Shown here one piece after another: positions 3,140-26,944 of a stretch of DNA of 28,645 nt (the stretch's first letter is position 1; each line of letters opens with the position of its first letter). The notes below the pieces were generated by a model. It did no database searches and had not been told where the DNA came from. It was given only the letters and a program-made list of their open reading frames with translations. The stretch is from the NCBI GenBank assembly GCA_030612305.1, contig JAUWOG010000001.1, positions 1 through 28,645 of the forward strand, read 5' to 3'. This DNA comes from Armatimonadota bacterium (GTDB lineage Bacteria > Armatimonadota > Zipacnadia > Zipacnadales > UBA11051). The translations under genes were made by a program, and so were the position numbers.

Positions 3140-4378
3140 ATGAGCTTTGATGAGGTGAAAGCCGGACTGCTCGAGGAAATCACGGAGTTCGAGATAATTG
3201 ACTGCCACGAACATCTGGGGCCCGAAAGCTCCCGTACAAGTACGGAAGTGAGCGCGCTGAATCTCTTCGGCCACTACACGCACCTGGACCTGAATACCGC
3301 CGGCATGAGTGAAGCCGACTACGGAAAGCTGCATGACAGCGACTACCCGCTCGAGTATCGCTGGGGTCTCTTCCGGCCATACCTGGATGAGGTCCGGTTC
3401 GGGTCTTATGCGCGGGCCGCGTTCATTGCGGCGAAGGAACTCTACGGCTTCGATGACATCAGCGACGAGACCTACCAGGAGCTCTCAGCGGCGATGCAGG
3501 AGGCCAATACGCCCGGGATCTATGAGCGTATCCTGCGGGACAAATGCAAGATCCGCTGCAGCCTGACGCAGTGTGGCAGCACCGACCTCGACAGCGAAAT
3601 CCTCATTCCGCTGATGCCGACGACCAACTATTGCAGCATCACAGCCTGGGAGCAAGTGGTCGAGCGGGCGAGGAATCTCGGCCGCAGCGTCAGTACGCTC
3701 GATGAATATGTGGCGCTGATGGATGCCGGGCTGGCGAAGTGGTGCGCCGAGGGAGCAGTCGGCGTCAAGAGCCGCTGTAACCCCTACCCGGATGGCGACC
3801 GGCAGCAGGCAGTCGAGGCGTTCGAGGCGCTGCGGACCGGAACAGTCGCCACCATCCCCGAGTTACACCCGCTGAATACCTGGCTGATGGAGCGGCTCTT
3901 CGAGTTGGCCCCGAAGCACGATATGGTCGTCGCAGTTCATGCCGGCATGTGGGGCAACTTCACGCTGCTCGATGTCAAGCACATGATCCCGTTCTTCATG
4001 CGCCATCCGGAGACCACCTTCGACCTGTACCACCTGAGCTTCCCGTCCGTGCACGACGCGGTCATCGCCGGCAAGAACTTCGCGAACGTCTATACGAACC
4101 TGTGCTGGACGCATATCATGTCGCCGACGATGACGCGGCAGGGGATGCGGGAACTGCTGGACTTCGTGCCCGTCAATAAGGTCTTCGCGTTCGGGGCCGA
4201 CTACGGCTCGCAGGCAGTGGACAAGGTCATCGGGCACCTGCGGATGGCGCAGGACAATATCGCCCACGTGCTGGCCGAGCGCGTCACCGATGGCCTGATG
4301 ACTTCGGCGCAGGCGGTCGAGATCGCGCACAAGTGGTTCTGGGATAATCCGGTGAAGGCCTATGGGTTGGAGGTGTAG
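3140..4378 (+). CDS. Amidohydrolase family protein (TIM-barrel metallo-hydrolase, Amidohydro_2/uronate-isomerase-like)
   Basis: 412 aa with an N-terminal D-C-H-E-H metal motif, later VHAG, LYHL and FGADY motifs, and an RBS-like GGAGGG before the ATG. Confidence 0.85.
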   Translation: MSFDEVKAGLLEEITEFEIIDCHEHLGPESSRTSTEVSALNLFGHYTHLDLNTAGMSEADYGKLHDSDYPLEYRWGLFRPYLDEVRFGSYARAAFIAAKELYGFDDISDETYQELSAAMQEANTPGIYERILRDKCKIRCSLTQCGSTDLDSEILIPLMPTTNYCSITAWEQVVERARNLGRSVSTLDEYVALMDAGLAKWCAEGAVGVKSRCNPYPDGDRQQAVEAFEALRTGTVATIPELHPLNTWLMERLFELAPKHDMVVAVHAGMWGNFTLLDVKHMIPFFMRHPETTFDLYHLSFPSVHDAVIAGKNFANVYTNLCWTHIMSPTMTRQGMRELLDFVPVNKVFAFGADYGSQAVDKVIGHLRMAQDNIAHVLAERVTDGLMTSAQAVEIAHKWFWDNPVKAYGLEV

Positions 4379-4485
4379 GAGGAGGCTGAGCGGGGGCGGC
4401 GGATGGAGGGGCCGTGCATAACACAGGGCCGCCTGGTGGCCCGGCGGGAATTCGTAGTTCTTTCTGTTCGCGTGCTTTGCTGCGT

Positions 4486-4977
4486 CTATCTATCAGCTTT
4501 CTCGACGGCCCTCTCAATCCAACGTCCGAGGTTTGCGTAGCCGTCGTCGCTGAGGTAGTCGTAGGTGTCGTATAGCGCGGACAGAGGGCGATTGAGGCCA
4601 GGTGCCGGGACTTTGATCTGCTCCAGCGGGTCTGGACCCTTTCTGCCGATTCTGCCCTGCTTGTTTCCGAGATTATGGATGTGAACGCCCACAAGGCCTT
4701 TGCCGTCGCTGTAGCTTTTCTCAATTTCGTACTTGACCCATTTTCTTTCCCATGTATGCGCGCCGATCAGGACTACGGTCACAGAAGTGCCCTTGAGCCC
4801 GGCATCAATCATCCTTCGCACCGCTCCGTCGCCCCTCGTCTGGGTCTCTTCCCAAAGAGACTGGTCGCAAAACCCCGCAGCCTCCCGGTCTTGCGTTACC
4901 CAACTTAGCCTAACTTGATTCGCACGCCAAATGTCGTCTGTCTCGTAGTGAAAGCTGAAAAACACTCTTCGCACCAT
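4486..4977 (-). CDS. TIR-domain protein, ThsB/DUF1863 (MTH538)-like
   Basis: Starts RRVFFSFHY, then SLWEE, GTSVTVVLIG and WVKYEI (the position of the catalytic Glu in ThsB-type TIRs). RBS AAGGAGG precedes the ATG. Confidence 0.9.
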   Translation of the reverse strand: MVRRVFFSFHYETDDIWRANQVRLSWVTQDREAAGFCDQSLWEETQTRGDGAVRRMIDAGLKGTSVTVVLIGAHTWERKWVKYEIEKSYSDGKGLVGVHIHNLGNKQGRIGRKGPDPLEQIKVPAPGLNRPLSALYDTYDYLSDDGYANLGRWIERAVEKADR

Positions 4978-5066
4978 CAGAAACCCTCCTTGTCACTGTG
5001 CGTTTGCCGCGACCCATTCGTGACCGTGTCACACTACTCCTCGAACTCAGCTTGACCAACTTACTT

Positions 5067-5096
5067 ATTCTATAATGCCGTCTCGTTAGGTGTCAA
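5067..5096 (-). promoter_or_regulatory. sigma70-type promoter for the TIR gene
   Basis: Minus strand TTGACA (5096-5091), 18-nt spacer, TAGAAT (5072-5067), about 90 nt upstream of the TIR start codon. Confidence 0.6.
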
Positions 5097-5117
5097 GATG
5101 ATTGTGAAAAACTCTCA

Positions 5118-5549
5118 TCAGTTTACCAGAAGCGCCACCGTGTAGATAGACAATAGCAGCAATAGCGAGCCATAGAAGAGGCCCAATGTGATCGTGAACA
5201 TGACGTCGCAAACGGACGGAACCTGGTCCTGGAACCTGTGGGCATTCATGTCGAAGAGGTGCTCGTCGGTCTGCAGCCTGTTCTCTACTATCCATTCGTA
5301 CAGCTTCCTGTACATTCGTTCCTGTCTGAGGAAATAGGCGTCCAGAATCCAGAAGACAACCAGCGGCAGGTAGGCAATAAATACCTGTGTTGCTTCCCCT
5401 TTCAAGAGCAGCGTGGCTACAATCAGCGTCACGGTCCAGCCCTTTATCAGGAAGGAATTCGAAGCCATGCGCTTGATTATGGACTGCACGATGCGCACTT
5501 CTTCGAGCATGAACTCCTTGAGGGTGTCATGGTCAAGGTCCATCTTCAT
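5118..5549 (-). CDS. Small 3-TM membrane protein, candidate TIR-associated effector
   Basis: 143 aa with three hydrophobic segments (about aa 33-49, 56-74 and 116-142). The pattern RMASNSFLIKGW ... FWILDAYFLRQERMYRKLY is one I recall from uncharacterised proteins encoded beside DUF1863 TIR genes (not verified). Confidence 0.75.
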   Translation of the reverse strand: MKMDLDHDTLKEFMLEEVRIVQSIIKRMASNSFLIKGWTVTLIVATLLLKGEATQVFIAYLPLVVFWILDAYFLRQERMYRKLYEWIVENRLQTDEHLFDMNAHRFQDQVPSVCDVMFTITLGLFYGSLLLLLSIYTVALLVN

Positions 5550-5701: not shown

Positions 5702-6535
5702 TCACTCCCGGTGCTCGGTGGTGAGTTGGGGAGGGGATGCGGTGAAGAGGTCGCCCTGAAGTGGGAGGACCTTGTCGCTGATGAGGGGCGCGAAGTCGGC
5801 GTTGAGCTCGTAGCCGACCGAGTCGCGGCCCTCCAGCGCGGCGGCCAGAGAGGTCGTGCCGCTGCCGAGGAATGGGTCGAGGACCGTCTCGCCGAAGAAG
5901 CTGTACATCTTGATGAGGCGGCGCGGTAGCTCCACCGGGAACATCGCGACGTGGCTCCGCTGGCGCTCCGGGGCGATGTCATCCCAGATGCCCCGGAACC
6001 ATTTGCTGCGCTGCTCCTTGGTGAGGCGGCTCTGCTCTTTGGCCTCCAGAGAAGGCTGGGGCCACTTGCCCGGCTTGCGGAACAGCAGGATGTACTCGTG
6101 CTCGTAGGTGACATGCCCGTCGCGCGGGTAGTATATCGAGCCCATGAGTTGGCCGCCGCCGGTGGTGTTGGTGGTCGAGACCTTGCGCCAGATGATGTTG
6201 CCCATGAAGTCGAAATCGAGGCGGCGGCAGAGGATTATCAGGTCGGCGGGGATCGGCTGGACCCGGTAGCGGCCATGCTCGGAGGCGCGGAGGTACTGGT
6301 CGCCGATGTTGACGGCGAAGCGGCAGCCCTCATGCAGCACGCGGAAGGTCTCGGCGAAGACCTCGCCGAGCGCGGCGAGGTATTCGTCGTAGGACTGCTC
6401 GAAGCCGATCTGGCCCGGGTGCGCGTAGTCCTTGAGGCACCAGTACGGCGGCGAGGTGACCGCGAAATGGATGGAGGCATCGAGCAACTCCGGCATCGTT
6501 CGCGCGTCGGCGAAGATGATTCTGTGGCTCGTCAT
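5702..6535 (-). CDS. Site-specific DNA methyltransferase, beta class (N4-C or N6-A), apparently orphan
   Basis: The catalytic motif TSPPY near the N-terminus precedes the SAM-binding motif VLDPFLGSGTT near the C-terminus, which is the beta-class order. HVAMFP motif also present. Confidence 0.9.
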   Translation of the reverse strand: MTSHRIIFADARTMPELLDASIHFAVTSPPYWCLKDYAHPGQIGFEQSYDEYLAALGEVFAETFRVLHEGCRFAVNIGDQYLRASEHGRYRVQPIPADLIILCRRLDFDFMGNIIWRKVSTTNTTGGGQLMGSIYYPRDGHVTYEHEYILLFRKPGKWPQPSLEAKEQSRLTKEQRSKWFRGIWDDIAPERQRSHVAMFPVELPRRLIKMYSFFGETVLDPFLGSGTTSLAAALEGRDSVGYELNADFAPLISDKVLPLQGDLFTASPPQLTTEHRE

Positions 6536-6537
6536 TG

Positions 6538-7281
6538 CTAGTCGCCGGCGATCTCGCAGGTCACACTGACGCGGGCGGTTATCTGCACCAGGCCGGCCTC
6601 TATCGCGGTTGTAGCGCCGCCACCCGCACCAGACCCGGCGACATTCATCATCTGCATCTGCCTGCGTGGCGCGTATTGGCCGACATCCTGGACACTGACG
6701 TTGGTGAAGCCGACGAGACGGAGGTCGAGCGTCGCCGCGAGCGCATGGGCCTTGCGGCGGGCATCTTTTGCGGCCGCCAGCATCGCCTCCTCCTTGTACT
6801 TGGCCTGGTCCTTGACGAAGATCTCGAGGCCGCCGACCTCATTGGCACCATTCTGGACGGCGGTGTCAATGATAGTCGCCGCGCGCCTGCTGAGCTCCTC
6901 CGGCGGGGCATTCGTGACGCGGATGGTGAGCTCGTTCTTGACCTGGTAGCCGATGATCTTGGGCGGGATGAGGTCGCGGGAGTTTTTGTCCTCGACGATG
7001 GTGGAGACATCGAAGCCGACGCTCTTCATCGTCATGTCCTCGTACTTGAGCGCCGCGATCGCTTTGAGGACGCGGTCGAAGGTCTCCGCGTTGTTCTGGC
7101 GGGCAGCGGACAACTCCGAGGAGATGCTCCGCACGCCGACATGGACGCGCACATTGTCGGGCTTCACGTAGATCGTCGCCTCGCCGCTGATATGGAGCAG
7201 GTTCGGCGGCTGGTCCGCGGCTCCACACATCGTTGCCGCGATGAGTAACAGCACCGTCACGGGGATGAGATATCTGGTCAT
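6538..7281 (-). CDS. SIMPL/DUF541 (YggE-like) exported protein
   Basis: Start re-called at ATG 7281 (RBS GAGGAGG, signal peptide MTRYLIPVTVLLLIAA). Motifs ISGEATIYVKPD, GYQVKNELTIRV and AAKDARRKAHALA are SIMPL hallmarks. Confidence 0.88.
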   Translation of the reverse strand: MTRYLIPVTVLLLIAATMCGAADQPPNLLHISGEATIYVKPDNVRVHVGVRSISSELSAARQNNAETFDRVLKAIAALKYEDMTMKSVGFDVSTIVEDKNSRDLIPPKIIGYQVKNELTIRVTNAPPEELSRRAATIIDTAVQNGANEVGGLEIFVKDQAKYKEEAMLAAAKDARRKAHALAATLDLRLVGFTNVSVQDVGQYAPRRQMQMMNVAGSGAGGGATTAIEAGLVQITARVSVTCEIAGD

Positions 7282-7327
7282 CTTGCTGGCCTCCTCTGTC
7301 TGGTTTCGGACGGCTGATGGCGCGGAG

Positions 7328-7660
7328 CTATAGTTGCAGGGCCCACCGGAGCATCCTCTCGACTTCGGCCATGTCGAGGTCGCTGAGGCGTCCGGGGCTG
7401 CGGAGTACATTCGCGCGAGTGGTGGTGAAGGGCTTGGGCCGGACGGTGCTCGGTTTCAGCAGATGCGCGGCTTCCCAATCGCGCAAGGCCACCTCGTTGT
7501 CATTCCGAGGCGGGTCGTTCACGATCCCGGCGACGATGATATCGTTGTCCCTCTTGTGGTATTGTGAGGCGCTGATGACTACGCCGAGGCGGATCTCTGC
7601 GCCGGTCCCATTTGTGGAGGGCATGGACACGACGACGACGTCACCCCTCCTCAACGCCAT
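7328..7660 (-). CDS. Type II toxin, PemK/MazF family
   Basis: Start re-called at MALRRGDVVVV (RBS GGAGGG). EIRLGVVIS corresponds to the K-x-R-P-x-x-V motif, followed by LLKPSTVR and GRLS...VERML. Confidence 0.85.
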   Translation of the reverse strand: MALRRGDVVVVSMPSTNGTGAEIRLGVVISASQYHKRDNDIIVAGIVNDPPRNDNEVALRDWEAAHLLKPSTVRPKPFTTTRANVLRSPGRLSDLDMAEVERMLRWALQL

Positions 7661-7952
7661 AGATTTCCCTCCAGTTCTCATAGATCGCGTCTTCCTCGTC
7701 GTCCCATATCTCACTGGCCGCGGCGCCAGTCAGCCGCTGGAAGTCCTCGAGTTCATCGTCGTCCGCTTCGGGCGGTCGCGGCGCGTCGCCACCAGCCTTG
7801 ATCCAGTTGAGAAGCTGCGAGCGCGAGAAGCGCCACTGTCTCCCGACCTTCGCGGCCGGAAGCTGCCTCGCGCGAGCCTTGCGCAGTATCGTCTGGACCC
7901 CGACGCTGAGCAGTTCGGCCGCTTCGTTGGCTGTCAGAACGTCCTTAGGCAT
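7641..7952 (-). CDS. Probable antitoxin: N-terminal Xis/HTH_17-type winged HTH fused to an acidic C-terminal peptide
   Basis: VLTANEAAELL...TILRKARARQLPAAKVGRQWRFSRSQL is an excisionase-type HTH. The C-terminal SEIWDDEEDAIYENW is acidic, and the gene overlaps the toxin start by 20 nt. Confidence 0.75.
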   Translation of the reverse strand: MPKDVLTANEAAELLSVGVQTILRKARARQLPAAKVGRQWRFSRSQLLNWIKAGGDAPRPPEADDDELEDFQRLTGAAASEIWDDEEDAIYENWREIYGVEEG

Positions 7953-7969
7953 TACGTCCTCCTCTGATA

Positions 7970-8043
7970 TGTTGTGGCCTGTTGTGGTCGCCAGAATGGC
8001 CTTGGTAGTTTATATTGTAGCGCAAAAGGTGGGAGCCGAGCAA
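7970..8043 (-). promoter_or_regulatory. Putative TA promoter with a tandem direct-repeat operator
   Basis: Minus strand TTGCTC (8043-8038), N18, TACAAT (8019-8014). TGTTGTGG is repeated at 7970 and 7980 (10-bp period) between the -10 element and the RBS. Confidence 0.45.
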
Positions 8044-8103
8044 GGGGAAGCTAGATGCAAGCTGGGGCAGGCGGGTACAAGTGGCGACCAAAGAGGCGAG
8101 GGG

Positions 8104-9723
8104 TCAGGCTTCGTCCTGGTCCTCGTCCTGGTTCTCGTCTTCGGTCCAGTCGAGGCGGCCCTGGTATGGCGGGGCGAGGTTCTCCTGGCAGGCTACCTCG
8201 ACGTTGAGTTCCGTCTTGCCGCTGACCTCGCGCAGTATGTCCCCGATGAGCGGGAGAATGCGCTGGATGTACTGGCAGAAGAAGGGGACCGGGGTGACCA
8301 TGACGGCGGACTTGCCGCGGATCGGCAGGAGGTACGTCGAGAGCAGTGCGGGGGACATCTCGCCGCGCTGTTCGAGCCTCGCCTTAGCCTGCTCCCAGAT
8401 CGCCTTCGTGCTCTCCCCTATCCCGAGTTCGGTCTCGATGGAGGCGCGGATGCCGCGGTACTCCTGCTGCTCGGCCTCGCGCTGGGCCTCGAGTTCGAGT
8501 GCGCGGCTCTCGGCGAGCTCCGCTTCGCCCGGCTCGATGCCGGAGCTTTCGGTGCGCTCGCGCTCCTCGTACCATTCGGGGATGACCCAGTCCTTCGAGC
8601 GGATGGCGGCCACGAGCCATGCGGCCGGGCTCTCGTGAGGCAGCCAGCCCTGGGAGAGCTTGTACTCGCAGTAGGCGGTCCAGCGGTGGATGTGGTGGTC
8701 GGCGTAGTTGGCGACAAGCTGACGCGCCATGGTCTCAGTTACGCCGAGTGCGACGAGTTTCGCAAAGAGGCCGTTATCGGCGGCGGGAAGCGCGTCGTGC
8801 GCCACCTGACCGGGGCGGCGCTTCGGGGCAAATGTATAGACAACCAGCTCCTCGGAGCCGCGACGCCTCGGGCGATAGTAGTTGACCTCGCGGAGAAAAC
8901 CCCTCTCGATGAGTTCGTCATGGACGCGTTGTAGCTCGCGCTTGATCTGGGAGGGGTAGTAATTGCGACTCATGCCGAGCTTCTCGAAGGCCAGCTTGCT
9001 CAGCCTCATGCGGTATGTTGCCTTGCCGTCATAGCGCTTCTTGTCCAGGTATCTGAACAAGCGGCGCGCCAGCGGAGTGCTGAGAGAAAAGTACATCCCC
9101 GTGTCCAATTGTTTGATGTTTCCTGCGCGGAAGCTGTTGAAGAGCACCGGGTTCCAGACGATGTAGCTGTGCGGCGGGTTGGTGTCGCGGCCGGGCTTCT
9201 CGTCGTATAGGCGGTAGCCCTCAAGAATGTGGAAGCCCTCGTTGACGTAGCGCTTGGCCTCATTATCCCAGAAAGAGTTGTTCGCGACAATACTCACACC
9301 CATGAGCCGGTTCAGGGAATCCTGTATGCGCTTGTATGAATGACCGTCGCGCGGCCAACCCATCCGTCGCAGCAAATCATATCGCGTAATTGGTATCTTT
9401 GCGTCCTCGAAGCCGTATTCCTCGCTAATTTCCATGAGCGCGACATAGAGTTCCTCATCGCCCGCAACCGGCAGGCCATACGCCTCCGAGCCGGTAATCG
9501 TCCACACTCTCCGGACGGCCTTCCCGCCCTTGCCGCTGATTATGTCATTGAACCGAATCGTGTTCAGGCCCTCGGGCACACGGTGCGAAAGCATCGTGAA
9601 GGGAAACTCGGCGAGGTTCATTTCGTCGCGACCGATACGCACCTCAAGGCGATCCTCAGTTGCCGGATCGTCCTGCAACATGCTTGTCTGGCGCGTTTTC
9701 TCTGGTAACGGCTTGGAACCCAT
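8104..9723 (-). CDS. repA: Plasmid/chromid replication initiator RepA (RPA-type) with a C-terminal DnaA-domain-I-like region
   Basis: RDEMNLAEFPF, GLPVAGDEELYVALM, SYKRIQDSLNRL and RRLFRYLDK are motifs of RPA-family initiators. ATG 9723 has GAGG at good spacing. The gene is adjacent to an iteron-like array and parA. Confidence 0.85.
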   Translation of the reverse strand: MGSKPLPEKTRQTSMLQDDPATEDRLEVRIGRDEMNLAEFPFTMLSHRVPEGLNTIRFNDIISGKGGKAVRRVWTITGSEAYGLPVAGDEELYVALMEISEEYGFEDAKIPITRYDLLRRMGWPRDGHSYKRIQDSLNRLMGVSIVANNSFWDNEAKRYVNEGFHILEGYRLYDEKPGRDTNPPHSYIVWNPVLFNSFRAGNIKQLDTGMYFSLSTPLARRLFRYLDKKRYDGKATYRMRLSKLAFEKLGMSRNYYPSQIKRELQRVHDELIERGFLREVNYYRPRRRGSEELVVYTFAPKRRPGQVAHDALPAADNGLFAKLVALGVTETMARQLVANYADHHIHRWTAYCEYKLSQGWLPHESPAAWLVAAIRSKDWVIPEWYEERERTESSGIEPGEAELAESRALELEAQREAEQQEYRGIRASIETELGIGESTKAIWEQAKARLEQRGEMSPALLSTYLLPIRGKSAVMVTPVPFFCQYIQRILPLIGDILREVSGKTELNVEVACQENLAPPYQGRLDWTEDENQDEDQDEA

Positions 9724-9917
9724 AATCACCCTCGCTGGTCTGGCTCTACCCTTGCGTACTCCCTCCAGCGCTACATATTATCTCGAGTCTGTTGGAGTAT
9801 TCATCAGCCTGCACGGCTTTTCTCGTTTTTCGCAGATTCGATTCCAGGCACGGGTCTCTTGGAATGCAACTTCCGTGCCATTCGCCATAAGCCCCGCAGC
9901 CTCAGGGCTTCGATTAG

Positions 9918-10743
9918 CGTGTTCTGACACAAGGTGTTGCTTGTCAATTGATGTCTCTGGAGTATTGGTCGCCGACACAGAAATCCCTCTTGTCAAATGA
10001 AAAGTAGTGTTGAAATAATGATCCTGGTGTGCAAATGCCTTTTGATGAATGGATGGCAACAACAAACGAGGTGAGCTGTAGTGATGTGAGCGATTGGTGG
10101 CCAGGCCAGATTCGCTTGGTTTCTTAGTGTCTTGTTGTTGATTCCATAACAGTCTTGATTCAAGACAGGTTCTAAGACTCCAGGAGCCATTGTGGCACAG
10201 GGGCTTATGGCGCTCGATTTGTGCCAAGACACCATAGCCTTGTGTTGCTACACGTCTTTGCGTTTCGCCTACTTGTCTCACCACTCGCCATTCATTGTGC
10301 CAGTACGCGGTATTCCAGGTGCCCATCTTGTGTTGGCACACGACTTTCCCCATTGCGCGAACTGCTCCAGCGCCCCCACCGCGTCCGCCTCCAGGAGTAT
10401 AGACGCACCTGCGCCCACAATACCACATTTTCAGGTGTCCATCATGAGCTTCGAGCACATCATCAATTTCGACGAACACTGGCTCTTGGCCTTTTTCTTG
10501 TGCGAGACAACTATATTTCCGGCAACGATTGTCTCTTTACTTGAGCCGGTACACACTATTCCTTGGGTCACCACACTACTTTGCTTGCATGAGATCACTA
10601 TATGGAGCGCTTATTGGGCGCAACACTGCGGATTCTTGTGCTGGCACACGATATTGTCTGTATCGGCGCACGGTATTTCTGCAGTCGTATGCCTATAGCG
10701 TGGTCTGACACAAGATATGCCGCCAGGCACTGTGGCACAATGG
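9918..10743. repeat. Iteron-like array, candidate replication origin
   Basis: Degenerate 16-mer (C/T/A)TTG(TG)-N6-CAC(G/N) in direct copies at 10218, 10239, 10272, 10294, 10327, 10540, 10562, 10584 and 10635, with inverted copies at 9918-9933 and 10699-10714. Spacings are 21, 33, 22, 33 and 22, 22. An AT-rich tract lies at about 9990-10050. Confidence 0.75.
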
Positions 10744-10955
10744 CCGAAGACACGCAATACGAGCGGTGAAAAAGCCTCAAGAGAGGGCGGACTGATACTG
10801 GAGATGGGGCTACGAGGGAAGGGCAATACAAATGTCCCTCTCCCCTATCGGCGCGGCTCTGGTGGGGTCGTATGAGAGCGCGGCCGCGAGGAACTAAGGA
10901 GCAGCGAGAGCCGCATCAGGGGCGGGAAGCCAACAGGCTCTTGTGCTGGCGACCT

Positions 10956-11447
10956 CTATTCCTCAGCGGGCTCGCCCCACGCGCGGGCGAGTTCGAGCAG
11001 CGCCTGCGCAATCAGCTCCGGGTCATAGATGGATATCGCCATCGCCGCCTGCGCGATCTGTGAGCGGTTGGCCTTGATGCCGTGCTCGGTCAAGAGGCGC
11101 ACGCGGCAGACTTCGAGTTGCTGGAGCATCTGCGCGGGCACGTAGAATGTCACCTTTTCCGTGTCCGGCTGGGGCAGCGTCTGTGGCGGCGCCAGAGTCT
11201 GCGAGGCCGCGATGCGGGCGAGGTCGAGTTGGCGCTCTGAGAGCAATGGCTGTGAGCCGGCAAGCGAAGCAGTCGGCTGAGGCACGACCTCAGGCTGCGG
11301 CATCTCAGTCTCTGCAGGCTGCGCTTCCTCAGGCGCTCGCCTGGCTCTTCTCTTGCGCGAGGGCTTCTGTGGCTCGGCCGCCTCCTCGGCGTCCTTCACC
11401 GTGCTGAAGAAGTCCTCAGCCCCGGGCAGCTTTGGTTTTCTGGCCAC
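10956..11447 (-). CDS. ParA partner protein (RHH-type, non-ParB centromere-binding candidate)
   Basis: GTG start with RBS AGGAGG, overlapping the parA 3' end. It has an N-terminal LPGAEDFF peptide, a low-complexity linker, and a C-terminal EKVTFYV...EHGIKANRSQI. This resembles the LPGADELF...EKITVY...EHGLAVDRGRI proteins found after ParA homologues in Actinobacteria. Confidence 0.7.
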   Translation of the reverse strand: MARKPKLPGAEDFFSTVKDAEEAAEPQKPSRKRRARRAPEEAQPAETEMPQPEVVPQPTASLAGSQPLLSERQLDLARIAASQTLAPPQTLPQPDTEKVTFYVPAQMLQQLEVCRVRLLTEHGIKANRSQIAQAAMAISIYDPELIAQALLELARAWGEPAEE

Positions 11448-12210
11448 GCTGCATGACCTCCTTTGCCAGACTGCGGTACGCCTCCGCCGCCAGCCCGCCA
11501 GGATCGTACATCGTTATCGGCAAGTTGGCCGCGGCGGCCTCCTGGAGGCGTATCGTCGTCGGTATCACCGACTGCATCACATCATCGCCGAAACCTTCCC
11601 GCACCATTTCGATGACATCGCGGTTGTGTATGGTGCGGCGGTCCTGCATCGTCATCACAATACCGCAGATGCGGAGCTTGGGATTGAGTTCGGCGCGGAT
11701 ACGCTCGATGCTCTGCGCCACCTGCCGCAAGCCGTGGAGCGCGAGAAACGAGGCCTGCTGCGGCACGAGCACCTCGTCCGCGGCAACTAGAGCGCCGACG
11801 TAGAGAAGCTGGAGGCCGGGCGGATTGTCGAGAATGAGGTAGTCGTAATCGCTGCGAACACTCTGCAGCGCCTCGGCGACGACGCTGTGGCGCTGCTCGG
11901 GGGGCCGCTCCATCAGCAATATCTCCGCACCGGCGAGGTCATTGGTGGCAGGGGCTATGTCCACCCCGGCCAGGGTCGTCTCGCGTATCGCATCTTCCAT
12001 CCCCACCTCGGGGTCGAACAACGCATCATACACGCTTGCTTCGCCGGGTTCCACGCTGATGCCCAGGTATGCCGAGAGGTCGGCTCGCGGGTCGAGATCA
12101 ACGAGCAATACGGCGGCCCCGGTTTCGCCAATGGCGGCGGCGAGGTTGAGCGCAGTTGTGGTCTTGCCGACCCCGCCTTTCTGATTGCAGATGGCGATGA
12201 TACGCGGCAT
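11416..12210 (-). CDS. parA: ParA/Soj family partition ATPase
   Basis: Deviant Walker A NQKGGVGKTT, DLDPRADL, Walker B ILDNPP and LQEAAA. Start re-called at MPRII (RBS GAGGGAG). Confidence 0.95.
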   Translation of the reverse strand: MPRIIAICNQKGGVGKTTTALNLAAAIGETGAAVLLVDLDPRADLSAYLGISVEPGEASVYDALFDPEVGMEDAIRETTLAGVDIAPATNDLAGAEILLMERPPEQRHSVVAEALQSVRSDYDYLILDNPPGLQLLYVGALVAADEVLVPQQASFLALHGLRQVAQSIERIRAELNPKLRICGIVMTMQDRRTIHNRDVIEMVREGFGDDVMQSVIPTTIRLQEAAAANLPITMYDPGGLAAEAYRSLAKEVMQRGQKTKAARG

Positions 12211-12267
12211 CGCGGGTTGGCTCCCTCGGGAGTGCTTGGTAATACGACGGGCGTGCCCTTGCAAGTG

Positions 12268-12598: not shown

Positions 12599-13570
12599 CT
12601 ATGGATTGGGGATGGGCGAGGTGATGCGGGCAGCGAGGTGGGAGAGGTGGTGGCCGGGGCGCGCGTAGAATGTCGGCGTCCCCGCGATGGTGACAGTGAG
12701 AGGCTCGGCGGGGTGTTGCTGAAGTGGGAGAAGCTGGCCGGGCGCGATGTTTGAGATGGTGCGCAGAGGGAGACGGAGACGGGCGACCTCAGCAACGATG
12801 GGAATCGGGGCGGCGGCGGCGTGTTTGGAGATGGGCCCGGAGAGAGAGATGTTGCGCAGGTGCGAGGTGTGGACGCCGTCGCGTTCGAGGGGGCGGAGAA
12901 GGCGTTGGAGGGAGGCTTGCGGGAGGGCGAGGTTGGTTGATGCTGAGTGGTCTCCGATCTGGAAGCGGTAGATGGCGTGGACTATGTCCTGGGCATCAGC
13001 GGAGATGTCGAGGTTGGCAACGGTGGAGGCGATGGCGGTGACGGTGGGGGAGAGCTGAGCGAGAGCCGGCCAGGTGAGGGTCCAAGTGCGGAGGATTTCA
13101 TTGAAGAGGCGGGTCAAGAGAGCGGCCTCGATGGGGGTGGGGTCGTGAGGGAGGACGTCTTCGGTGAGAGCGGGAGCGCCGAGCATCGTGTTGATGAGGA
13201 GAACGGCGATACCGGGATCAATCTGCCAGACGCCGGGGGCGGAATGGGGATCCAGGGCGAAGATGACGAGGATGGGGTTGGACGGGAGCCCGCGGATGTA
13301 TTGGTCGAAGGTTGGATAATCGAGGCCCTCGAAGGCGACGGAAAGGGGGGCGTTGAGATAGGCGGTCAGCGTACGGGAGAGGACCTTGGAGAGGACCGTG
13401 CAGCGGTTGGCAAGCTCATGGGTCTGGTCAGGTGAGAGCTGGGTCGCATCGCGGAAGTCGTAGAGGGCCACGGTGGCAGTGGCGTCAGGGTGCGTATCAG
13501 CGCGGGCTATGGCCATGGAAGTGACCAGCACGTCGAGCTCTTCCTGGGTAATGAGCGGCTCGTCACTCAT
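12599..13570 (-). CDS. fliM: Flagellar motor switch protein FliM
   Basis: N-terminal CheY-binding peptide LITQEELDVL, LYDFRD, TFDQYIRGLP, a central CheC-like region, and a C-terminal SpoA/FliMN-like region. Confidence 0.88.
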   Translation of the reverse strand: MSDEPLITQEELDVLVTSMAIARADTHPDATATVALYDFRDATQLSPDQTHELANRCTVLSKVLSRTLTAYLNAPLSVAFEGLDYPTFDQYIRGLPSNPILVIFALDPHSAPGVWQIDPGIAVLLINTMLGAPALTEDVLPHDPTPIEAALLTRLFNEILRTWTLTWPALAQLSPTVTAIASTVANLDISADAQDIVHAIYRFQIGDHSASTNLALPQASLQRLLRPLERDGVHTSHLRNISLSGPISKHAAAAPIPIVAEVARLRLPLRTISNIAPGQLLPLQQHPAEPLTVTIAGTPTFYARPGHHLSHLAARITSPIPNP

Positions 13571-13608
13571 GGGTCTTCCCCTTTGGCCGGCAGATGAGCA
13601 CGAGGGCG

Positions 13609-14622
13609 CTATTCGACATAGGCAACGTCATCGTAGTCAATGGTTATTTCCCCTTTCTCGTCGAGTTCGCGTGCCAGGGCGGCAAGGCCTGCGCGAGCGT
13701 TTTCCACGTCGGCCACGCGGACGGGGCCGAGCGCTTCAATCTCCTCTTCGAGACCCTCTCTGCCGCGCTCGGAGAGGTTCTCGGCGATGTGGGCTTTGCT
13801 CTGGTCCTCAAGCCCCTTGACGGCCATAGCGAGATCGCGCGTCTCGGCGGCGCGGAGCACGGTCTGAAGGGCGCGATCGGGAAGGCCGAGCACGTTCTCG
13901 AAGGTGAAGAGGTTCTGCTCGATGCGGGCGGCAAGATCGGGGTCGTGCTTTCCCAGATCTTCGAGCAGACTCTGCTGCGTGGGGCGGTCGAGGTTGGTGA
14001 GCAGGTCCAACATGAATGAAAAGGTGTCGTTGGGATCGCTGTGCTTATTGTCCGTCTGGGGCGCGAAGGCCTCGTCGAGGCCCTCAGCGAGGGCCTGGAG
14101 TGCGCCGGGGGCCAGGGCATGAAGAGTCGCGGCTCTACCGACAATATCGGCGCGGCGCTCTTCGGGGATGTCCTGGAGCACCTCGGCTGCCTTGGCAGGG
14201 GACAGTTGGCTGATGAGTACGGCGGCGGTCTGTGGCAGCTCGGCCTCGAGGCGCCGGGCGATGACCGCGGCGTTCATGCCGACCATCTCGCGCAGCTGGT
14301 CGAGACCGTCGCCTTGGTGCAGCGTAAGGTCAAGGTCGTTGTCACTGCCCAGAGCCTCAGAGAGTATCTGCTGGGCCATGTCGAGACCGCCGAGGCGCTC
14401 GGTCTGCAGGCAGGATGCCGAGAACCCCTGGAGTATTGCCTTGTACTCCTCGGCGCTGATGGCATCGAGGCGAGCGACTTCCTCGGCCAGCGTGCGGACC
14501 GTCCCCTCCTTCAGGCGCTTGCACACTGCCGTTGCCAGCTCGGTCCCGAGCGAGGCGACGATGACGGCGGCTTTCTGCAGAGTCTTGTGCGAATCGATAG
14601 GCCCATCGGCCACCTGGGTCAC
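13609..14622 (-). CDS. fliG: Flagellar motor switch protein FliG
   Basis: QKAAVIVASLG, GGLDMAQQIL, ELPQTAAVLISQL, LFTFENV, ENLSERGREGLEEEI and GPVRVADVE are all FliG motifs. GTG start. Confidence 0.93.
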   Translation of the reverse strand: MTQVADGPIDSHKTLQKAAVIVASLGTELATAVCKRLKEGTVRTLAEEVARLDAISAEEYKAILQGFSASCLQTERLGGLDMAQQILSEALGSDNDLDLTLHQGDGLDQLREMVGMNAAVIARRLEAELPQTAAVLISQLSPAKAAEVLQDIPEERRADIVGRAATLHALAPGALQALAEGLDEAFAPQTDNKHSDPNDTFSFMLDLLTNLDRPTQQSLLEDLGKHDPDLAARIEQNLFTFENVLGLPDRALQTVLRAAETRDLAMAVKGLEDQSKAHIAENLSERGREGLEEEIEALGPVRVADVENARAGLAALARELDEKGEITIDYDDVAYVE

Positions 14623-14668
14623 CTTCGGTCTGGCATCGCCCTTGGGCGTCAGCTACTGTGGTGAGTGA

Positions 14669-15142
14669 CTACGCGGCCTTGCGTGTCTTGCGCAGCGCCA
14701 CATTGATGTCAATCTTGCCGAACTGGCTGGATACGGGAACCAGCAACGCGGGACAGAGGGTTGTAACCTGGATACCGGAGCCGTTGATCAGCGACGGCGG
14801 CGTGATATCGCACTGGAAGCCGGCGGTCTCGAGGTGTGTAGTCGCATTGCCTGTTATGATGTTGGCCAACTCGCTCAGCGCGCTGGAAGCCAGCTCGTCT
14901 ATCTCCTTGACGTCTTGATCAAGCATCTGCGAGGCGATCTTCAGCGCCGTCACCTGCGACATCCCGTACAGAGCCACCCCTTCGATGTCACCGCTGACAC
15001 CGAGCAGCGTCGAGAGCTCCTGAGTGGTGAAGGTGTTGCCATCCCGCAGCGTCAACTGGCCCCGCTCCGGAGAGGCGCTGACTACTTGCGACAGAACGGT
15101 GAAGGTTGCTCGGACGAAGGGCTCGATGAACTCTACTTGCAT
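14669..15142 (-). CDS. cheX: Chemotaxis phosphatase CheX
   Basis: MQVEFIEPFVRAT start (RBS GAGGAG), GVSGDIEG, SALSELANIITGNA (E-x-x-N catalytic motif) and DITPPSLI. Confidence 0.93.
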   Translation of the reverse strand: MQVEFIEPFVRATFTVLSQVVSASPERGQLTLRDGNTFTTQELSTLLGVSGDIEGVALYGMSQVTALKIASQMLDQDVKEIDELASSALSELANIITGNATTHLETAGFQCDITPPSLINGSGIQVTTLCPALLVPVSSQFGKIDINVALRKTRKAA

Positions 15143-15219
15143 TGAGCCGGCGCTCCTCAGGGATGGCATTGTCAGAATCAGCGTGCCGCCAGACGGCTAG
15201 CAGGCACCGTCGAGGTGCC

Positions 15220-15235
15220 AGCAATTTAGGTGCCA
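15220..15235 (-). promoter_or_regulatory. sigma54 -24/-12 promoter upstream of cheX-fliG-fliM
   Basis: Minus strand TGGCAC-CTAAA-TTGCT, exact consensus, in the cheY-cheX intergenic gap. Confidence 0.85.
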
Positions 15236-15297
15236 ATGCGGGGGCGCGGGGAGAAGCCGTGCCTACCGAAGTGTCGCGCAACTTAGGGGGAGTCGTC

Positions 15298-15666
15298 TCA
15301 AGCGGCCGCGGAGAGCAGGCGCTGGACTATCTCAAGGACCTTCTCCGGCTCGAACGGCTTGACCACGTATTCGCAGGCTCCGGCCTTGACCGCCTCGAGT
15401 ACCATCTGCTGCTGCCCCAGCGCCGAGCAGATGACCACCTTCGCCGAAGGGTCTTTCTCGATGATCGCTTTGGGCGCGCCGATCCCGTCAAGGCCCGGCA
15501 TCGTGATATCCATCAGCACCAGGTCGGGCTTCTCGGCCTCATAGGCGGCAACGCCGGCCTCGCCGTCCGGGGCCTCACACGTCTGATAGCCGACGCCATC
15601 GAGAATACTGCACAACATCTTGCGCATGTAGAGGGCGTCGTCAACGGTCAGTATCTTGGCAGACAT
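15298..15666 (-). CDS. cheY: Chemotaxis response regulator CheY (Bacillus/Thermotoga-like)
   Basis: Single receiver domain: VDDALYMR, LMDITMP (phospho-Asp), SALGQQ and VVKPF. Confidence 0.9.
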   Translation of the reverse strand: MSAKILTVDDALYMRKMLCSILDGVGYQTCEAPDGEAGVAAYEAEKPDLVLMDITMPGLDGIGAPKAIIEKDPSAKVVICSALGQQQMVLEAVKAGACEYVVKPFEPEKVLEIVQRLLSAAA

Positions 15667-15765
15667 CGCCGCAGTCTCCTTGCCAATATGGGCGCGAGGT
15701 CATAGTCGGGCCGCTGAGTATAGCCGAGTGCCGCGACACTCGGACCGCCACGGCTGACTGTGTGA

Positions 15766-15793
15766 TTATCGGCCTTCGCGCGCCATTCCTTGA
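15766..15793 (-). promoter_or_regulatory. sigma28-type promoter upstream of cheY
   Basis: Minus strand TCAAG (15793-15789), N15, GCCGATAA (15773-15766). Same geometry as the fliJ site. Confidence 0.8.
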
Positions 15794-16018
15794 GTTCCAA
15801 TAATCTTTACGAGCGATTTTCTAAAGCCGCCTCGGCCTCCCGCCGATACTATCTCTACGTAATCCCTTCAGACCTAGTACCAGTGCCCGCTGTCGAATGG
15901 GGGAGAGGAGGTATGCCCCGCCCCCCTTCACACTTGCACTCCCAGCCGCAATCGCGATTTCGGACAGAGCCCGGCCCTCATAACCACCGCGTTCACCCTA
16001 AGGAGCGCCTGAATCACC

Positions 16019-17377
16019 ATGTTGCGAATGGAAACTGTAGTGGCCCCGAATGCCTCCCCCGCTGTTCTCCCCCAGGTTGTTGCACAAAGCGCCCTTCTGG
16101 AACTGGCGGCCCTCGAGCTTGAAGAGAAAGTCAAGGAAGAGCTGGAGGAGAACCCCGCCCTCGAATTCAAGAACGAAACGCTGCCGCCGATTGACTACTT
16201 ACCGGCGCCGAATCTTCCGCGTGGCCCGGCCGGCCGGGACGACGCCCACGGCTCCGACGCATGGGCCAATCTGGCGGATACCTACACACTCCGGGACGAC
16301 CTCAAGCGCCAGTTCCGCGCCCAGAATCCCAGCGACCACTATCCCATCGGCGAACTTCTCATCGAGGCCATAGACGAAGACGGCTATCTGGCCATTTCTG
16401 TCGAGGAGGCCGCGGAGACCCTCTGCGTCGCCTGCGCGGAAGTCGAGCAGGCACTCGACGCCATCCACGATCTTTCTCCGTGCGGCCTTGGCGCTCGCAG
16501 CCTCGTCGAGTGTCTCCGGCTGCAACTGGAATGCCTTGAGCCATCTCGCCTCCCCGAGGGTGTAGAAGCCGTCATCGAAGCCATGCCGTACCTCAGCGAA
16601 CAGTCTCTCCGGGGCGCTGCGAATTGCATCACCGAACTGAAGGCGATGACGAGACTCTCCCCCTCCCGGCTCCGCAGCGCACTGGAATTCATCCGCAAGC
16701 ATCTCTCTCCCTATCCCGGCCGCGCCTTTCACGAGCCCTGGGAAGGAGCGAAGCACGAAACCCAGTACGTTTACCCCGATGTCGTGCTCTCGCTGGGGCT
16801 GGAAGATGACATCATCATCTCGATACCCCAGTCGGAGCGGCTCGCATTGCGCATCAGCGGCGCGTACCAGCGGCTTGACAACCAACTACGCGCTGCCTGT
16901 ATTCGCACCCGCGACGAGCGCCTCAAAGACGCCCGCAGGCAAGTGCGCGAGGCCCGCCAGTTCATCGAGAATCTCACCCGCCGATATCGCACCACCTATC
17001 AGGTCATGAGCGCGATTATTGACCGGCAGAGCGAGTTCATCCGCAGCGGCCCCGCACACCTCAAGCCGCTCAGCAAGAAGGAGATCGCACAGAGCATCAG
17101 CATCCATGAGGCCACAGTCTGCCGCGCAACTAAGGGCAAGTATGTCCTGATGCCTGACGGGCGGCTGGAAGAGATAGACATATTCTTCGATGACGCCCTG
17201 CCAGCGAGGAGCCTGATTCGCCGGCTGGTCAACTCCGAGGACAAATTGAAGCCGCTGTCGGATCGCCGCCTCCAGGACGAGCTCTGCCGGCGCGGCTTCG
17301 ACCTGGCCCGCCGCACTGTCACCAAGTACCGCCTCCAACTCGAGATCCCCTCGGCGAGCCGCCGCCGGGCGGCATAG
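16019..17377 (+). CDS. rpoN: RNA polymerase sigma-54 factor RpoN
   Basis: Region I (PQVV...ELEENPALE), HTH KPLSKKEIAQSISIHEATVCRA, PLSDRRL and RpoN box ARRTVTKYR. Confidence 0.95.
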   Translation: MLRMETVVAPNASPAVLPQVVAQSALLELAALELEEKVKEELEENPALEFKNETLPPIDYLPAPNLPRGPAGRDDAHGSDAWANLADTYTLRDDLKRQFRAQNPSDHYPIGELLIEAIDEDGYLAISVEEAAETLCVACAEVEQALDAIHDLSPCGLGARSLVECLRLQLECLEPSRLPEGVEAVIEAMPYLSEQSLRGAANCITELKAMTRLSPSRLRSALEFIRKHLSPYPGRAFHEPWEGAKHETQYVYPDVVLSLGLEDDIIISIPQSERLALRISGAYQRLDNQLRAACIRTRDERLKDARRQVREARQFIENLTRRYRTTYQVMSAIIDRQSEFIRSGPAHLKPLSKKEIAQSISIHEATVCRATKGKYVLMPDGRLEEIDIFFDDALPARSLIRRLVNSEDKLKPLSDRRLQDELCRRGFDLARRTVTKYRLQLEIPSASRRRAA

Positions 17378-17510
17378 CCCGCAGCGGGCGTCGCCTGTCA
17401 GTGCTGTTTGCCGCGATGTCGTAGTGGAGGGCCCGGCCGACGGGCGGAAACGTGGCTTCCCCAGGGAGACCGGCCCGCGCAAGAGACGACCCCACCAGGA
17501 CCCACATCAC

Positions 17511-17526
17511 TGGCACACCTATTGCA
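17511..17526 (+). promoter_or_regulatory. sigma54 -24/-12 promoter upstream of flgB
   Basis: TGGCAC-ACCTA-TTGCA, exact consensus. Confidence 0.88.
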
Positions 17527-17664
17527 GTGTATCGCATGACCAGAGTGGGGGATGGGGGAGAGCCGCGCGGGCACCCACGCCGGAGGCGTAGGTCAGGCGT
17601 CCAGCCTGACGGCGTTGGCAGCCCCACGGAATCGCAGATGCGCGCAGAAAGCGCAGGAGAAAAA

Positions 17665-18066
17665 ATGGCGCAACGAGCCATGTTGTCAGACATCACTGTT
17701 GCCGCGCTGGCAAAGGGCCTCGATGGCGCTTATGCTCGCCAGCTTGCCATCGGTGACAATCTGGCGAATGTCGAGACGCCCAACTACCAGGCGAAGCGAG
17801 TGAGCTTCGAGGCCAGTCTCCGCGCGGCCATCGGTGCCGAGAGGTCCGCCCGGGGCGCTGGACGCGGCCGCAGGCGCATCGAAGACGTCCTCCCGCACGT
17901 GCAGCGCACCACCGCCACCTGGAGGCGGGATGGCAACACGGTGGATCTCGAGACTGAGATGGTCGCGATGGCAAAAACCTCGCTGCACTACCGGATGCTG
18001 TCGCGACTGATGGCCAAGAAGTTCCGCATGATGGCGCGGACGCTGAACGGGGGCGGTGGCCAGTGA
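17665..18066 (+). CDS. flgB: Flagellar basal-body rod protein FlgB
   Basis: DNLANVETPNYQAK and RRDGNTVDLETEM motifs. Start re-called at ATG 17665 (RBS AGGAG). Confidence 0.93.
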   Translation: MAQRAMLSDITVAALAKGLDGAYARQLAIGDNLANVETPNYQAKRVSFEASLRAAIGAERSARGAGRGRRRIEDVLPHVQRTTATWRRDGNTVDLETEMVAMAKTSLHYRMLSRLMAKKFRMMARTLNGGGGQ

Positions 18067-18458
18067 GCATCTTTCGGGCTATGGACGTGAGCGGCAGCGG
18101 CCTCCGTGCGCAGCGTGTGCGCATGGACACCATCGCCGAGAATATCGCCAACGCCGAGACTACGCGCACCGCCGAGGGCGGCCCCTATCGCCGCCTGCGA
18201 GTGCTGGTAGCGCCCGCCGATGACAGCAGCGGCGGCGTCCAGCTAGTCGCCGTCATGCCCGATGAGGGCCCCCTGAAGCAGGTCTATGACCCGTCCCACC
18301 CGGATGCCGACGAGCAGGGCTACGTGCAGATGCCGAACGTGGATATCGCCACCGAGATGGTGGACATGGTGACTGCCAGCCGGGCCTACGAAGCCAATGC
18401 GAAGGCACTCGCGATGGCACGGGCGATGGTGCGGGACGCCATAGACATTCTCACCTGA
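18063..18458 (+). CDS. flgC: Flagellar basal-body rod protein FlgC
   Basis: SGSGLRAQRVRMDTIAENIANAETT, YDPSHPDAD, PNVDIATEMVDM and YEAN motifs. GTGA overlap with flgB. Confidence 0.96.
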   Translation: MSIFRAMDVSGSGLRAQRVRMDTIAENIANAETTRTAEGGPYRRLRVLVAPADDSSGGVQLVAVMPDEGPLKQVYDPSHPDADEQGYVQMPNVDIATEMVDMVTASRAYEANAKALAMARAMVRDAIDILT

Positions 18459-18464
18459 TGACAA

Positions 18465-18519
18465 CTATGCACAAGCTCACTATCCACTTCTTCCACAAAC
18501 TTATCCACAACTCACCACA
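18465..18519 (+). promoter_or_regulatory. Cluster of DnaA-box-like 9-mers in the flgC-fliE gap
   Basis: Perfect TTATCCACA at 18501, with co-oriented variants CTATGCACA (18465), CTATCCACT (18480), TCTTCCACA (18489) and a weak CTCACCACA (18511). Confidence 0.45.
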
Positions 18520-18613
18520 CGAAGCTCAAGCATCACCTCCACCGCCGTCGCCGCATCAGTAGTCTCCAGCCACCGCCACTCACCTGCCGGAATCCGGGAC
18601 CAGGAGTAAGAGC

Positions 18614-18988
18614 ATGCCGATACGCCCCGTGCAAACAGATGCCAGGCTCCTTGAGAGCGCAATGCCTGCCGGCGGTTCGGGGTCGCTTGAGAGCCGGCCC
18701 ATCAGGCCTCTGGAGCCGCTGTCTCCGGGCGGGCCGACAACTCGAACCGACAGCGCGGAGACGGGGAGCAACACCTTCGGAGACCTCCTTCACGGCGCGT
18801 TGCGGCAGGTCAATGAGCTCCAGGTCGAGGCCGATCACCAGGCGGAGCTGCTGGCCACCGGCGAGGCACAGAACCCGCATGACGCTGTCATCGCCATGGA
18901 GAAGGCTGATCTGGCGCTGCAACTGACCATCAGAATCACTGAGAAGGCCCTCTCCGCTTATCAGCAGGTCAGCCAGATACAAATCTAG
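18614..18988 (+). CDS. fliE: Flagellar hook-basal body protein FliE
   Basis: FGDLLHGALRQVN, HDAVIAMEKADLALQL and AYQQVSQIQI. RBS AGGAG. Confidence 0.93.
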   Translation: MPIRPVQTDARLLESAMPAGGSGSLESRPIRPLEPLSPGGPTTRTDSAETGSNTFGDLLHGALRQVNELQVEADHQAELLATGEAQNPHDAVIAMEKADLALQLTIRITEKALSAYQQVSQIQI

Positions 18989-19029
18989 ATAACTGACGGC
19001 GGGGGCGTACCCCGCTTTACATCAACGGC

Positions 19030-20676: not shown

Positions 20677-20727
20677 CGGCGCAAGCTGGACTGTGCCCGG
20701 GCTCGGCTTACAACCAGATGGTTGATA

Positions 20728-20928
20728 ATGAATTGGCGCAGGCTGAGCAGACTGCTGGTAATTGCGTTGGCGGTATTCGGGGGCATAGCCCTGGCTGCCG
20801 TTGTGCTAATCGCACTGTGCGGTCCGACGCTGAGTACTCAGCGGCTCGTGGCGTTCTTCACGACTATGTTCGCAGTGACCGGCGCGGCAGTGACTGTTGC
20901 GGTTCTGGTTGTCACTGACCGTGGCTAG
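20728..20928 (+). CDS. Small 2-TM hypothetical protein between fliF and fliH
   Basis: 66-aa ORF MNWRRLSRLLVIALAVFGGIALAAVVLIAL...LVAFFTTMFAVTGAAVTVAVLVV with two hydrophobic helices. It fills the fliF-fliH gap in frame order with the operon. Confidence 0.55.
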   Translation: MNWRRLSRLLVIALAVFGGIALAAVVLIALCGPTLSTQRLVAFFTTMFAVTGAAVTVAVLVVTDRG

Positions 20929-20956
20929 TACCTACTGGCTTACTCAGGCCTCCAAC

Positions 20957-23121: not shown

Positions 23122-23325
23122 CTCGCCGCTCTCGTCCCCGGGAAGCCATCCTCCTGCGCGCGGCCGCAAACCGTCCGCCACCCGAGTCTCTCTCGCCGTT
23201 GGCTTTGGGTCGTCCCTCTTGCTATACTGAGTCGGAAAGGGCTTTCAGGCATGACGCAGAAATGATACAATGATAATCCACTTCATGTATCGCTCTTCAG
23301 TTTGCTCTATCGAGGGGAGGGTGAA

Positions 23326-26901: not shown

Positions 26902-26944
26902 CCACAGCCTCCGCCATGTTCCACACTAGGGGAGGCGACCGTTC

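Follow-up and report, generated by a model that had tools for sequence, protein, structure and literature searches.

Gene content and surroundings of the locus

The window, by which we mean the whole stretch of 28,645 nucleotides that was analysed, carries two co-oriented genes on its minus strand, in which an ORF for a small membrane protein precedes an ORF for a TIR protein across a 140-bp gap (Table 1). The promoter-like site between the two genes was a pattern match only, with one site found against 0.6 expected in shuffled sequences. The hairpin downstream of the TIR gene had a weak T tail, and the count of such hairpins was no higher than in shuffles. The G+C content of the module was 52.5% (0.525), compared with 61.6% (0.616) for the window; a value this low occurs in just 2.7% of stretches of equal size.

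Table 1. Features of the candidate defence pair and its surroundings in the window.
Feature	Position (direction of reading)	Strand	Basis and description
Candidate thsF-like effector gene, first of the pair	5118-5549 (5549->5118)	-	ORF; 143-aa protein, three membrane helices, PADLOC PDC-M50A family
thsB gene (as assigned)	4486-4977 (4977->4486)	-	ORF; 163-aa ThsB-type TIR, catalytic Glu E84 in WVKYEI
Sigma-70-like promoter match, TTGACA-18-TAGAAT	5067-5096 (5096->5067)	-	Consensus scan, 11/12 positions; between the two genes
Terminator-like GC-rich hairpin	4426-4442	-	Consensus scan; 44 bp past the thsB stop codon
Amidohydrolase	3140-4378	+	
N6/N4 DNA methylase	5702-6535	-	
SIMPL protein	6538-7410	-	
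MazF/PemK toxin with HTH_17 protein	7328-7952	-	
RepA-like protein, 541 aa, PF10134	8104-9729	-	
MinD/ParA-type ATPase	11416-12264	-	
Flagellar cluster: FliM, FliG, CheX, RpoN, rod protein, FliF, FliH, flagellar ATPase	12599-23121		

Pfam annotation of the neighbours found no SIR2, Macro or caspase gene adjoining the pair, and there was no SIR2_2 match anywhere in the 85%-complete assembly. The surroundings, which include the flagellar cluster, indicate that the contig is chromosomal. The pair adjoins a short stretch that looks like mobile DNA: at 7328-9729 the MazF/PemK toxin gene overlaps the HTH_17 gene, with the RepA-like gene beside them, and this region looks like an integrated mobile element next to the candidate defence pair. 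G+C falls to 0.50-0.56 at 9000-11000, where two ORFs had no Pfam match. The MinD/ParA-type ATPase may be FlhG rather than a protein of plasmid partition. At the far end of the window (23302-28645, G+C 0.55-0.60) there are two long ORFs, one of 1199 aa and one of 567 aa that runs off the end, neither of which had a Pfam match.

Within the first 14 kb, only the DNA methylase gene matched a same-genus and a same-family genome at the DNA level (75-76%), and in the former it has different neighbours. This gene seems to travel, or to be retained, independently of the TIR pair. Synteny with these two genomes defined no insertion borders for the pair. Elsewhere in the window's own genome, on contig C78 (L002:1477-2738), lies a second TIR pair, in which 35 bp separate the gene for a 180-aa ThsB-type TIR (PF08937, E = 1.2e-17) from a following gene, whose 227-aa product has a membrane helix at its N-terminus. 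The 227-aa protein had no match in Pfam or PADLOC and may be another Thoeris-like effector.

The TIR protein and its membrane partner

The window TIR matched the Pfam family ThsB_TIR (PF08937) at 6e-24 and, in PADLOC, both the ThsB model (3.6e-60) and the PDC-M50B model PDLC04688 (1.3e-57, residues 1-160). Against the structures of ThsB from B. cereus MSX-D12 (6LHY/9B7D) it scored 1.2e-36, with approximately 48% identity over 121 residues. The window motif WVKYEI aligns with WVRYEI of these structures, and the catalytic glutamate is therefore E84, which is intact. A ThsB-type TIR with an intact catalytic glutamate is a feature of type V Thoeris, and it is present in the window pair.

The membrane protein matched all four PDC-M50A models of PADLOC-DB v2, the best being PDLC04684 (1.4e-50, residues 12-142). 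PDC-M50 is defined there by adjacent PDC-M50A and PDC-M50B genes, and the window has both. No mention of PDC-M50 by name was found in the literature, and the PADLOC candidate papers do not treat M50.

Hydropathy placed three hydrophobic segments in the 143-aa membrane protein, at approximately residues 33-50, 55-74 and 120-142. AlphaFold2, given an alignment of 93 diverse relatives, returned a model with pLDDT 96.1 and pTM 0.86, in which two long helices (7-48 and 53-90) form a hairpin reaching from the soluble side into the membrane, followed by two short helices and then by the third membrane helix (120-142). A small adjacent effector with three membrane-spanning helices is likewise a type V Thoeris feature that the pair possesses. 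The near-invariant residues of the family are Q22, R27, N31, S32, K36 and W38 in helix 1, and F66, W67, D70, E77 and R81 in helix 2. In the model, a conserved polar and basic cluster occupies the membrane-proximal parts of these two helices, at a common height on the hairpin and close to the membrane surface. We propose that this cluster is a putative signal-binding or gating site; such a site on the hairpin would explain why no separate ligand-binding domain is needed. A four-copy complex prediction of the protein scored 0.30 against a mark of 0.42, which counts neither for nor against self-assembly.

The original prediction for this locus had described a ThsB-like TIR with its catalytic glutamate intact, co-oriented with a 143-aa protein of three transmembrane helices, in a module poorer in G+C than its neighbours that gives the TIR gene its own sigma-70-like promoter and adjoins no SIR2, Macro or caspase gene. 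The description was accurate. Its two 60-base G+C counts (0.55 and 0.65) were exact, the neighbours were the amidohydrolase, methylase, SIMPL, MazF/PemK, HTH_17 and RepA-like genes, and the promoter agreed as a consensus match.

The family identity of the membrane protein was less simply settled. The preprint that describes type V Thoeris assigns its effector, ThsF, to Pfam PF10028 (DUF2270) (Yirmiya et al., bioRxiv 10.64898/2025.12.03.692087). PF10028 did not match the window membrane protein even at E ≤ 10, matched none of 93 diverse family members and none of three scanned plasmid homologues, and found nothing in the window's own genome or in three other family-carrying genomes. A genuine DUF2270 protein did not match the PADLOC models, and alignment of the membrane family with the DUF2270 alignment in hhalign gave a probability of 1.7%. 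With the PF10028 searches empty and this hhalign value, membership of DUF2270 by sequence was rejected.

SLATT families were searched for in the same way. SLATT_1 to SLATT_6 did not match the window membrane protein at E ≤ 10, and SLATT_1 (PF18181) found nothing in the window genome. A SLATT_1 search of the phylum gave two unrelated matches only, too few for a profile. Among the 93 relatives there was no SLATT Pfam match, and one weak match each to CyanoTRADDas_TM and 8xMP. In the AlphaFold DB clusters the matches were mostly unnamed homologues; a DUF3899 entry ranked 11th and a cluster named SLATT effector ranked 15th (TM 0.74, E 1.2e-3, 22% identity). The ESM Atlas returned, at TM 0.68, a cluster named 'RipA family octameric membrane protein' in which 37% of members carry Pfam 8xMP; 8xMP also came up, with a low score, in a language-model search. 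Foldseek against solved structures found nothing at E ≤ 0.001, and VIA-align found generic helical hairpins only, e.g. ESCRT-III; their Z scores, which reached 8.7, are no higher than helical models are expected to give. As modelled, the window protein may resemble SLATT-type effectors in architecture, but it matches none of the SLATT sequence families.

TIR linkage and mobility of the membrane family

The membrane family comprised 810 clusters at 90% identity and 3524 clusters at 50% identity (E ≤ 0.001). A pattern scan located it in 444 species genomes from a wide range of bacterial and archaeal phyla, where its members share 50-65% identity with the window protein. Among the best 80 genome loci, a ThsB-like TIR gene lay immediately downstream on the same strand at 43 and was convergent at two, and six more loci carried other TIR types. 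After removal of the three loci that end at the family gene, a TIR neighbour was present at 51 of 77 usable loci. Divergent TIRs that Pfam detected were missed by a local iterative HMM and were recovered with extra queries. In most relatives the two genes overlap or abut, in contrast to the 140-bp gap in the window.

At approximately 26 of the 77 loci (L005-L081), about a third, no TIR lies nearby and the family gene adjoins housekeeping-type genes, for example those for HSP70, a tRNA synthetase, glucose-6-phosphate isomerase and an M23 peptidase. These family genes may be orphans whose TIR is encoded elsewhere, or they may be remnants.

The family also occurs on 129 plasmid records (Klebsiella 40, Escherichia 36, Campylobacter 10, and others). 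A TIR gene was found within two genes in eight of the nine plasmid genera inspected (Campylobacter, E. coli, Priestia, Halorhabdus, Vibrio, Klebsiella, Streptomyces and Rhodococcus); in the ninth, the exception, the family copy adjoins IS30. The plasmid membrane proteins that were scanned, from Priestia, Campylobacter and E. coli, all matched PDC-M50A. A strong linkage of the membrane family to TIR genes was observed in genome loci and plasmid genera alike; the original prediction had made enrichment beside TIR genes a test of its reading.

Partner TIRs ranged from 163 to 510 aa and belonged to various subtypes, while the membrane family was constant, and some loci had two TIR genes beside one membrane gene. 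Varied TIR partners beside a constant membrane family are what Thoeris shows, where the sensor varies and the effector stays the same. In the window's phylum, 4 of 151 genomes carried the family, and it was not found in the same-genus and same-family genomes, a distribution that fits an accessory, horizontally moved module.

On a Streptomyces plasmid (L091, NZ_CP108986) and a Rhodococcus plasmid (L092, NZ_CP016822), a ThsF-family gene lies beside a HIT-domain gene and a TIR gene. TIR with HIT is the type XI Thoeris configuration, and at these two loci one TIR locus may serve two different effectors.

Relation to type V Thoeris

In December 2025, Yirmiya et al. described 29 putative Thoeris types, of which seven new ones were validated (bioRxiv 10.64898/2025.12.03.692087). 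Type V consists of ThsB and 'ThsF', a protein with three membrane helices, and type V systems from B. thuringiensis DAR 81934 and Bacillus sp. 1NLA3E defend B. subtilis (bioRxiv 10.64898/2025.12.03.692087). The signal of the B. thuringiensis system is 3'cADPR, and its effector is toxic when 3'cADPR is supplied, whereas the 1NLA3E variant was not activated by added 3'cADPR. The authors modelled ThsF as a ring-shaped homo-oligomer, with heptamers in the supplementary models, and predict that the signal binds in positively charged pockets between ThsF protomers (bioRxiv 10.64898/2025.12.03.692087). A survey of E. coli TIRs also includes a TM-containing system (PMC11350192).

Two TIRs listed as 'DUF2270 - Type V' in Table S1 of the preprint could be traced to plasmids that carry the membrane family. 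Row 2618333924 matches the TIR of the E. coli IncC plasmid NZ_LT985249 (9/10 fragments from start to end, with one A/V change), and the gene beside it encodes a homologue of the window membrane protein (1e-13, 42.6% identity) that matches PDC-M50A at 8.3e-32. Row 2620964761 matches a Klebsiella plasmid TIR (8/8 fragments), also with a window-protein homologue beside it (5e-19). Table S1 places both TIRs in cluster 2734579397, which is the cluster of the validated B. thuringiensis ThsB. In B. thuringiensis GCA_002566715 and on a Priestia plasmid, a 198-aa TIR is directly followed by a 135-aa member of the membrane family; counted by eye, the TIR domains are approximately 76% and 67% identical, respectively, to the validated 1NLA3E ThsB, and the gene order is the same. 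Table S1 also gives the type V label to TIRs that share both the subtype and the full-length architecture of the window TIR. The '3TM' class of that table was considered and set aside: the TIRs in its 100 rows fall into two other clusters (FISHSW type), and such a TIR occurs only at L020 of the 80 loci.

Given the Table S1 TIRs with membrane-family neighbours and the B. thuringiensis pair, the window pair is best read as a type V Thoeris (thsF-thsB) anti-phage system, a reading from sequence to which we assign a probability of about 0.8. We also think it likely that the authors' ThsF cluster is the window's membrane family and that the PF10028 label fails with current models; the placing of the window effector in that cluster is supported indirectly, through TIR partners and Table S1 labels. 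The PF10028 mismatch is read here as a labelling discrepancy in the source, not as exclusion from type V. PADLOC PDC-M50 and type V Thoeris are very probably the same system. The points against the type V reading are the absence of PF10028 and the low hhalign probability, the third of family loci that have no TIR nearby, the failure of added 3'cADPR to activate the 1NLA3E variant, and the effector-first order with its 140-bp gap.

The mismatch could also mean that the pair is a separate TIR and three-helix system, PDC-M50, which the table lumps with true DUF2270 effectors, the validated Bacillus ThsF being an unrelated PF10028 protein. PF10028 and the membrane family have no detectable relation, a single TIR cluster occurs with effectors of several kinds according to the preprint (bioRxiv 10.64898/2025.12.03.692087), and PDC-M50 was not named in the literature found, all of which speak for such a separation. 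However, the 'DUF2270 - Type V' TIRs on the E. coli and Klebsiella plasmids have only this membrane family as neighbour, the Priestia and B. thuringiensis TIRs that are close to a validated type V ThsB carry it in the same order, and the 120 closest Bacillaceae relatives have no Pfam domain on record. We therefore consider a separate system improbable. It is very unlikely that the roles are reversed, with the TIR as an NAD+-depleting killer and the membrane protein as its sensor, anchor or regulator. Some bacterial TIRs are indeed NAD+-depleting effectors (bioRxiv 10.64898/2025.12.03.692087), and the TIR gene here has its own promoter-like site, but one conserved membrane family pairs with many unrelated TIRs of 163 to 510 aa, sometimes with two TIR genes per membrane gene, and the window TIR is approximately 48% identical to a ThsB that produces a signal. 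That the locus is an inactive remnant from a mobile element, with no present function, would agree with a GC-poor insert adjoining MazF/HTH and RepA-like genes and with the unusual 140-bp intergenic gap. Yet both reading frames are full length and keep all residues that are invariant or near-invariant in their families, among them D70 of the membrane protein and E84 of the TIR, and we regard this as extremely unlikely.

If the pair works as type V Thoeris does, ThsB would sense phage infection and convert NAD+ to a cyclic ADP-ribose isomer. [quoted passage not shown] This signal would bind the cytoplasmic face of the three-helix membrane protein (the ThsF family, equated with PDC-M50A), which is thought to form a ring-shaped homo-oligomer. 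Binding would open or rearrange the ring and so breach the membrane, and the infected cell would stop growing or die before phage release. Defence, the 3'cADPR signal and the oligomer model are taken from what the preprint gives for relatives, and it is by analogy that we infer the identity of the signal, its binding site and the activity of the window locus.

The signal for this branch is uncertain, because the 1NLA3E variant did not respond to added 3'cADPR. The window branch has features of its own: the effector gene leads, thsB may have a separate promoter, and the TIR is closest to type I ThsB. We hold it as a tentative and somewhat unlikely variant that the type V effector family is not DUF2270 but an unmodelled family with a fold of the SLATT/8xMP kind, which would give the effectors of types V and VII and those of CBASS a common origin, and that the window branch might use a cADPR isomer other than 3'cADPR, or a second cue, as 1NLA3E seems to.

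The route originally predicted, from the TIR to a small membrane effector that replaces ThsA, fits the published logic of type V Thoeris. The novelty claimed for the pair as a non-canonical system did not survive, since it is already catalogued as PDC-M50 in PADLOC and corresponds to type V Thoeris, the very finding that the prediction had named as counting against it. Its argument that the lack of a ligand-binding domain implied a different signal or direct activation was not supported: B. thuringiensis type V uses ordinary 3'cADPR, with pockets predicted between protomers, and the window protein has the conserved polar and basic cluster on its first two helices.

The locus itself reveals no new biology. 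The assignment would add this MAG to the known hosts of type V Thoeris, and it connects the unnamed PADLOC candidate PDC-M50 to a named and tested system. The effector family has no working Pfam model yet is common (3524 clusters at 50% identity and 129 plasmid records, in bacteria and archaea), so annotation that relies on PF10028 will miss it.

Comparison with known systems

The window proteins match both PDC-M50 models of PADLOC-DB v2 over nearly their full length, and the genes are adjacent. PDC-M50 differs in being a computational candidate with no described function, and its B model covers one TIR subtype only, whereas the A family pairs with many. Type I Thoeris of B. cereus MSX-D12, in which ThsB acts with the SIR2-SLOG protein ThsA, shares the approximately 48% TIR identity and the same catalytic glutamate; the window has no SIR2-SLOG effector beside the TIR or in the assembly, and a membrane effector stands in its place. 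The Macro domain, a feature of type II Thoeris effectors, had no match in the 143-aa window protein, whose five helices make up the whole chain.

A fold of a possibly similar kind is found in type VII Thoeris (ThsB with the SLATT effector ThsH), in CBASS SLATT effectors and in Pfam 8xMP (PF24838), which appear to share with the window protein a long hairpin of helices that reaches from the cytoplasm into the membrane and a further membrane helix. No SLATT Pfam model matches the window protein or the 93 relatives, and canonical cADPR is the signal in those type VII systems that were tested (Yirmiya et al., bioRxiv 10.64898/2025.12.03.692087).

Type V Thoeris has in common with the window pair a ThsB-type TIR beside a small three-helix effector, with no ThsA, and the effector beside listed type V TIRs, on the E. 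coli and Klebsiella plasmids and in the B. thuringiensis genome, is of the window's family. The window pair differs from type V in its effector-first order, 140-bp gap and promoter-like site, in its host, a high-GC MAG of a different phylum, and in that the preprint's PF10028 label is not reproducible on the window protein. The locus is a new example of a catalogued and tested system, not a new system.
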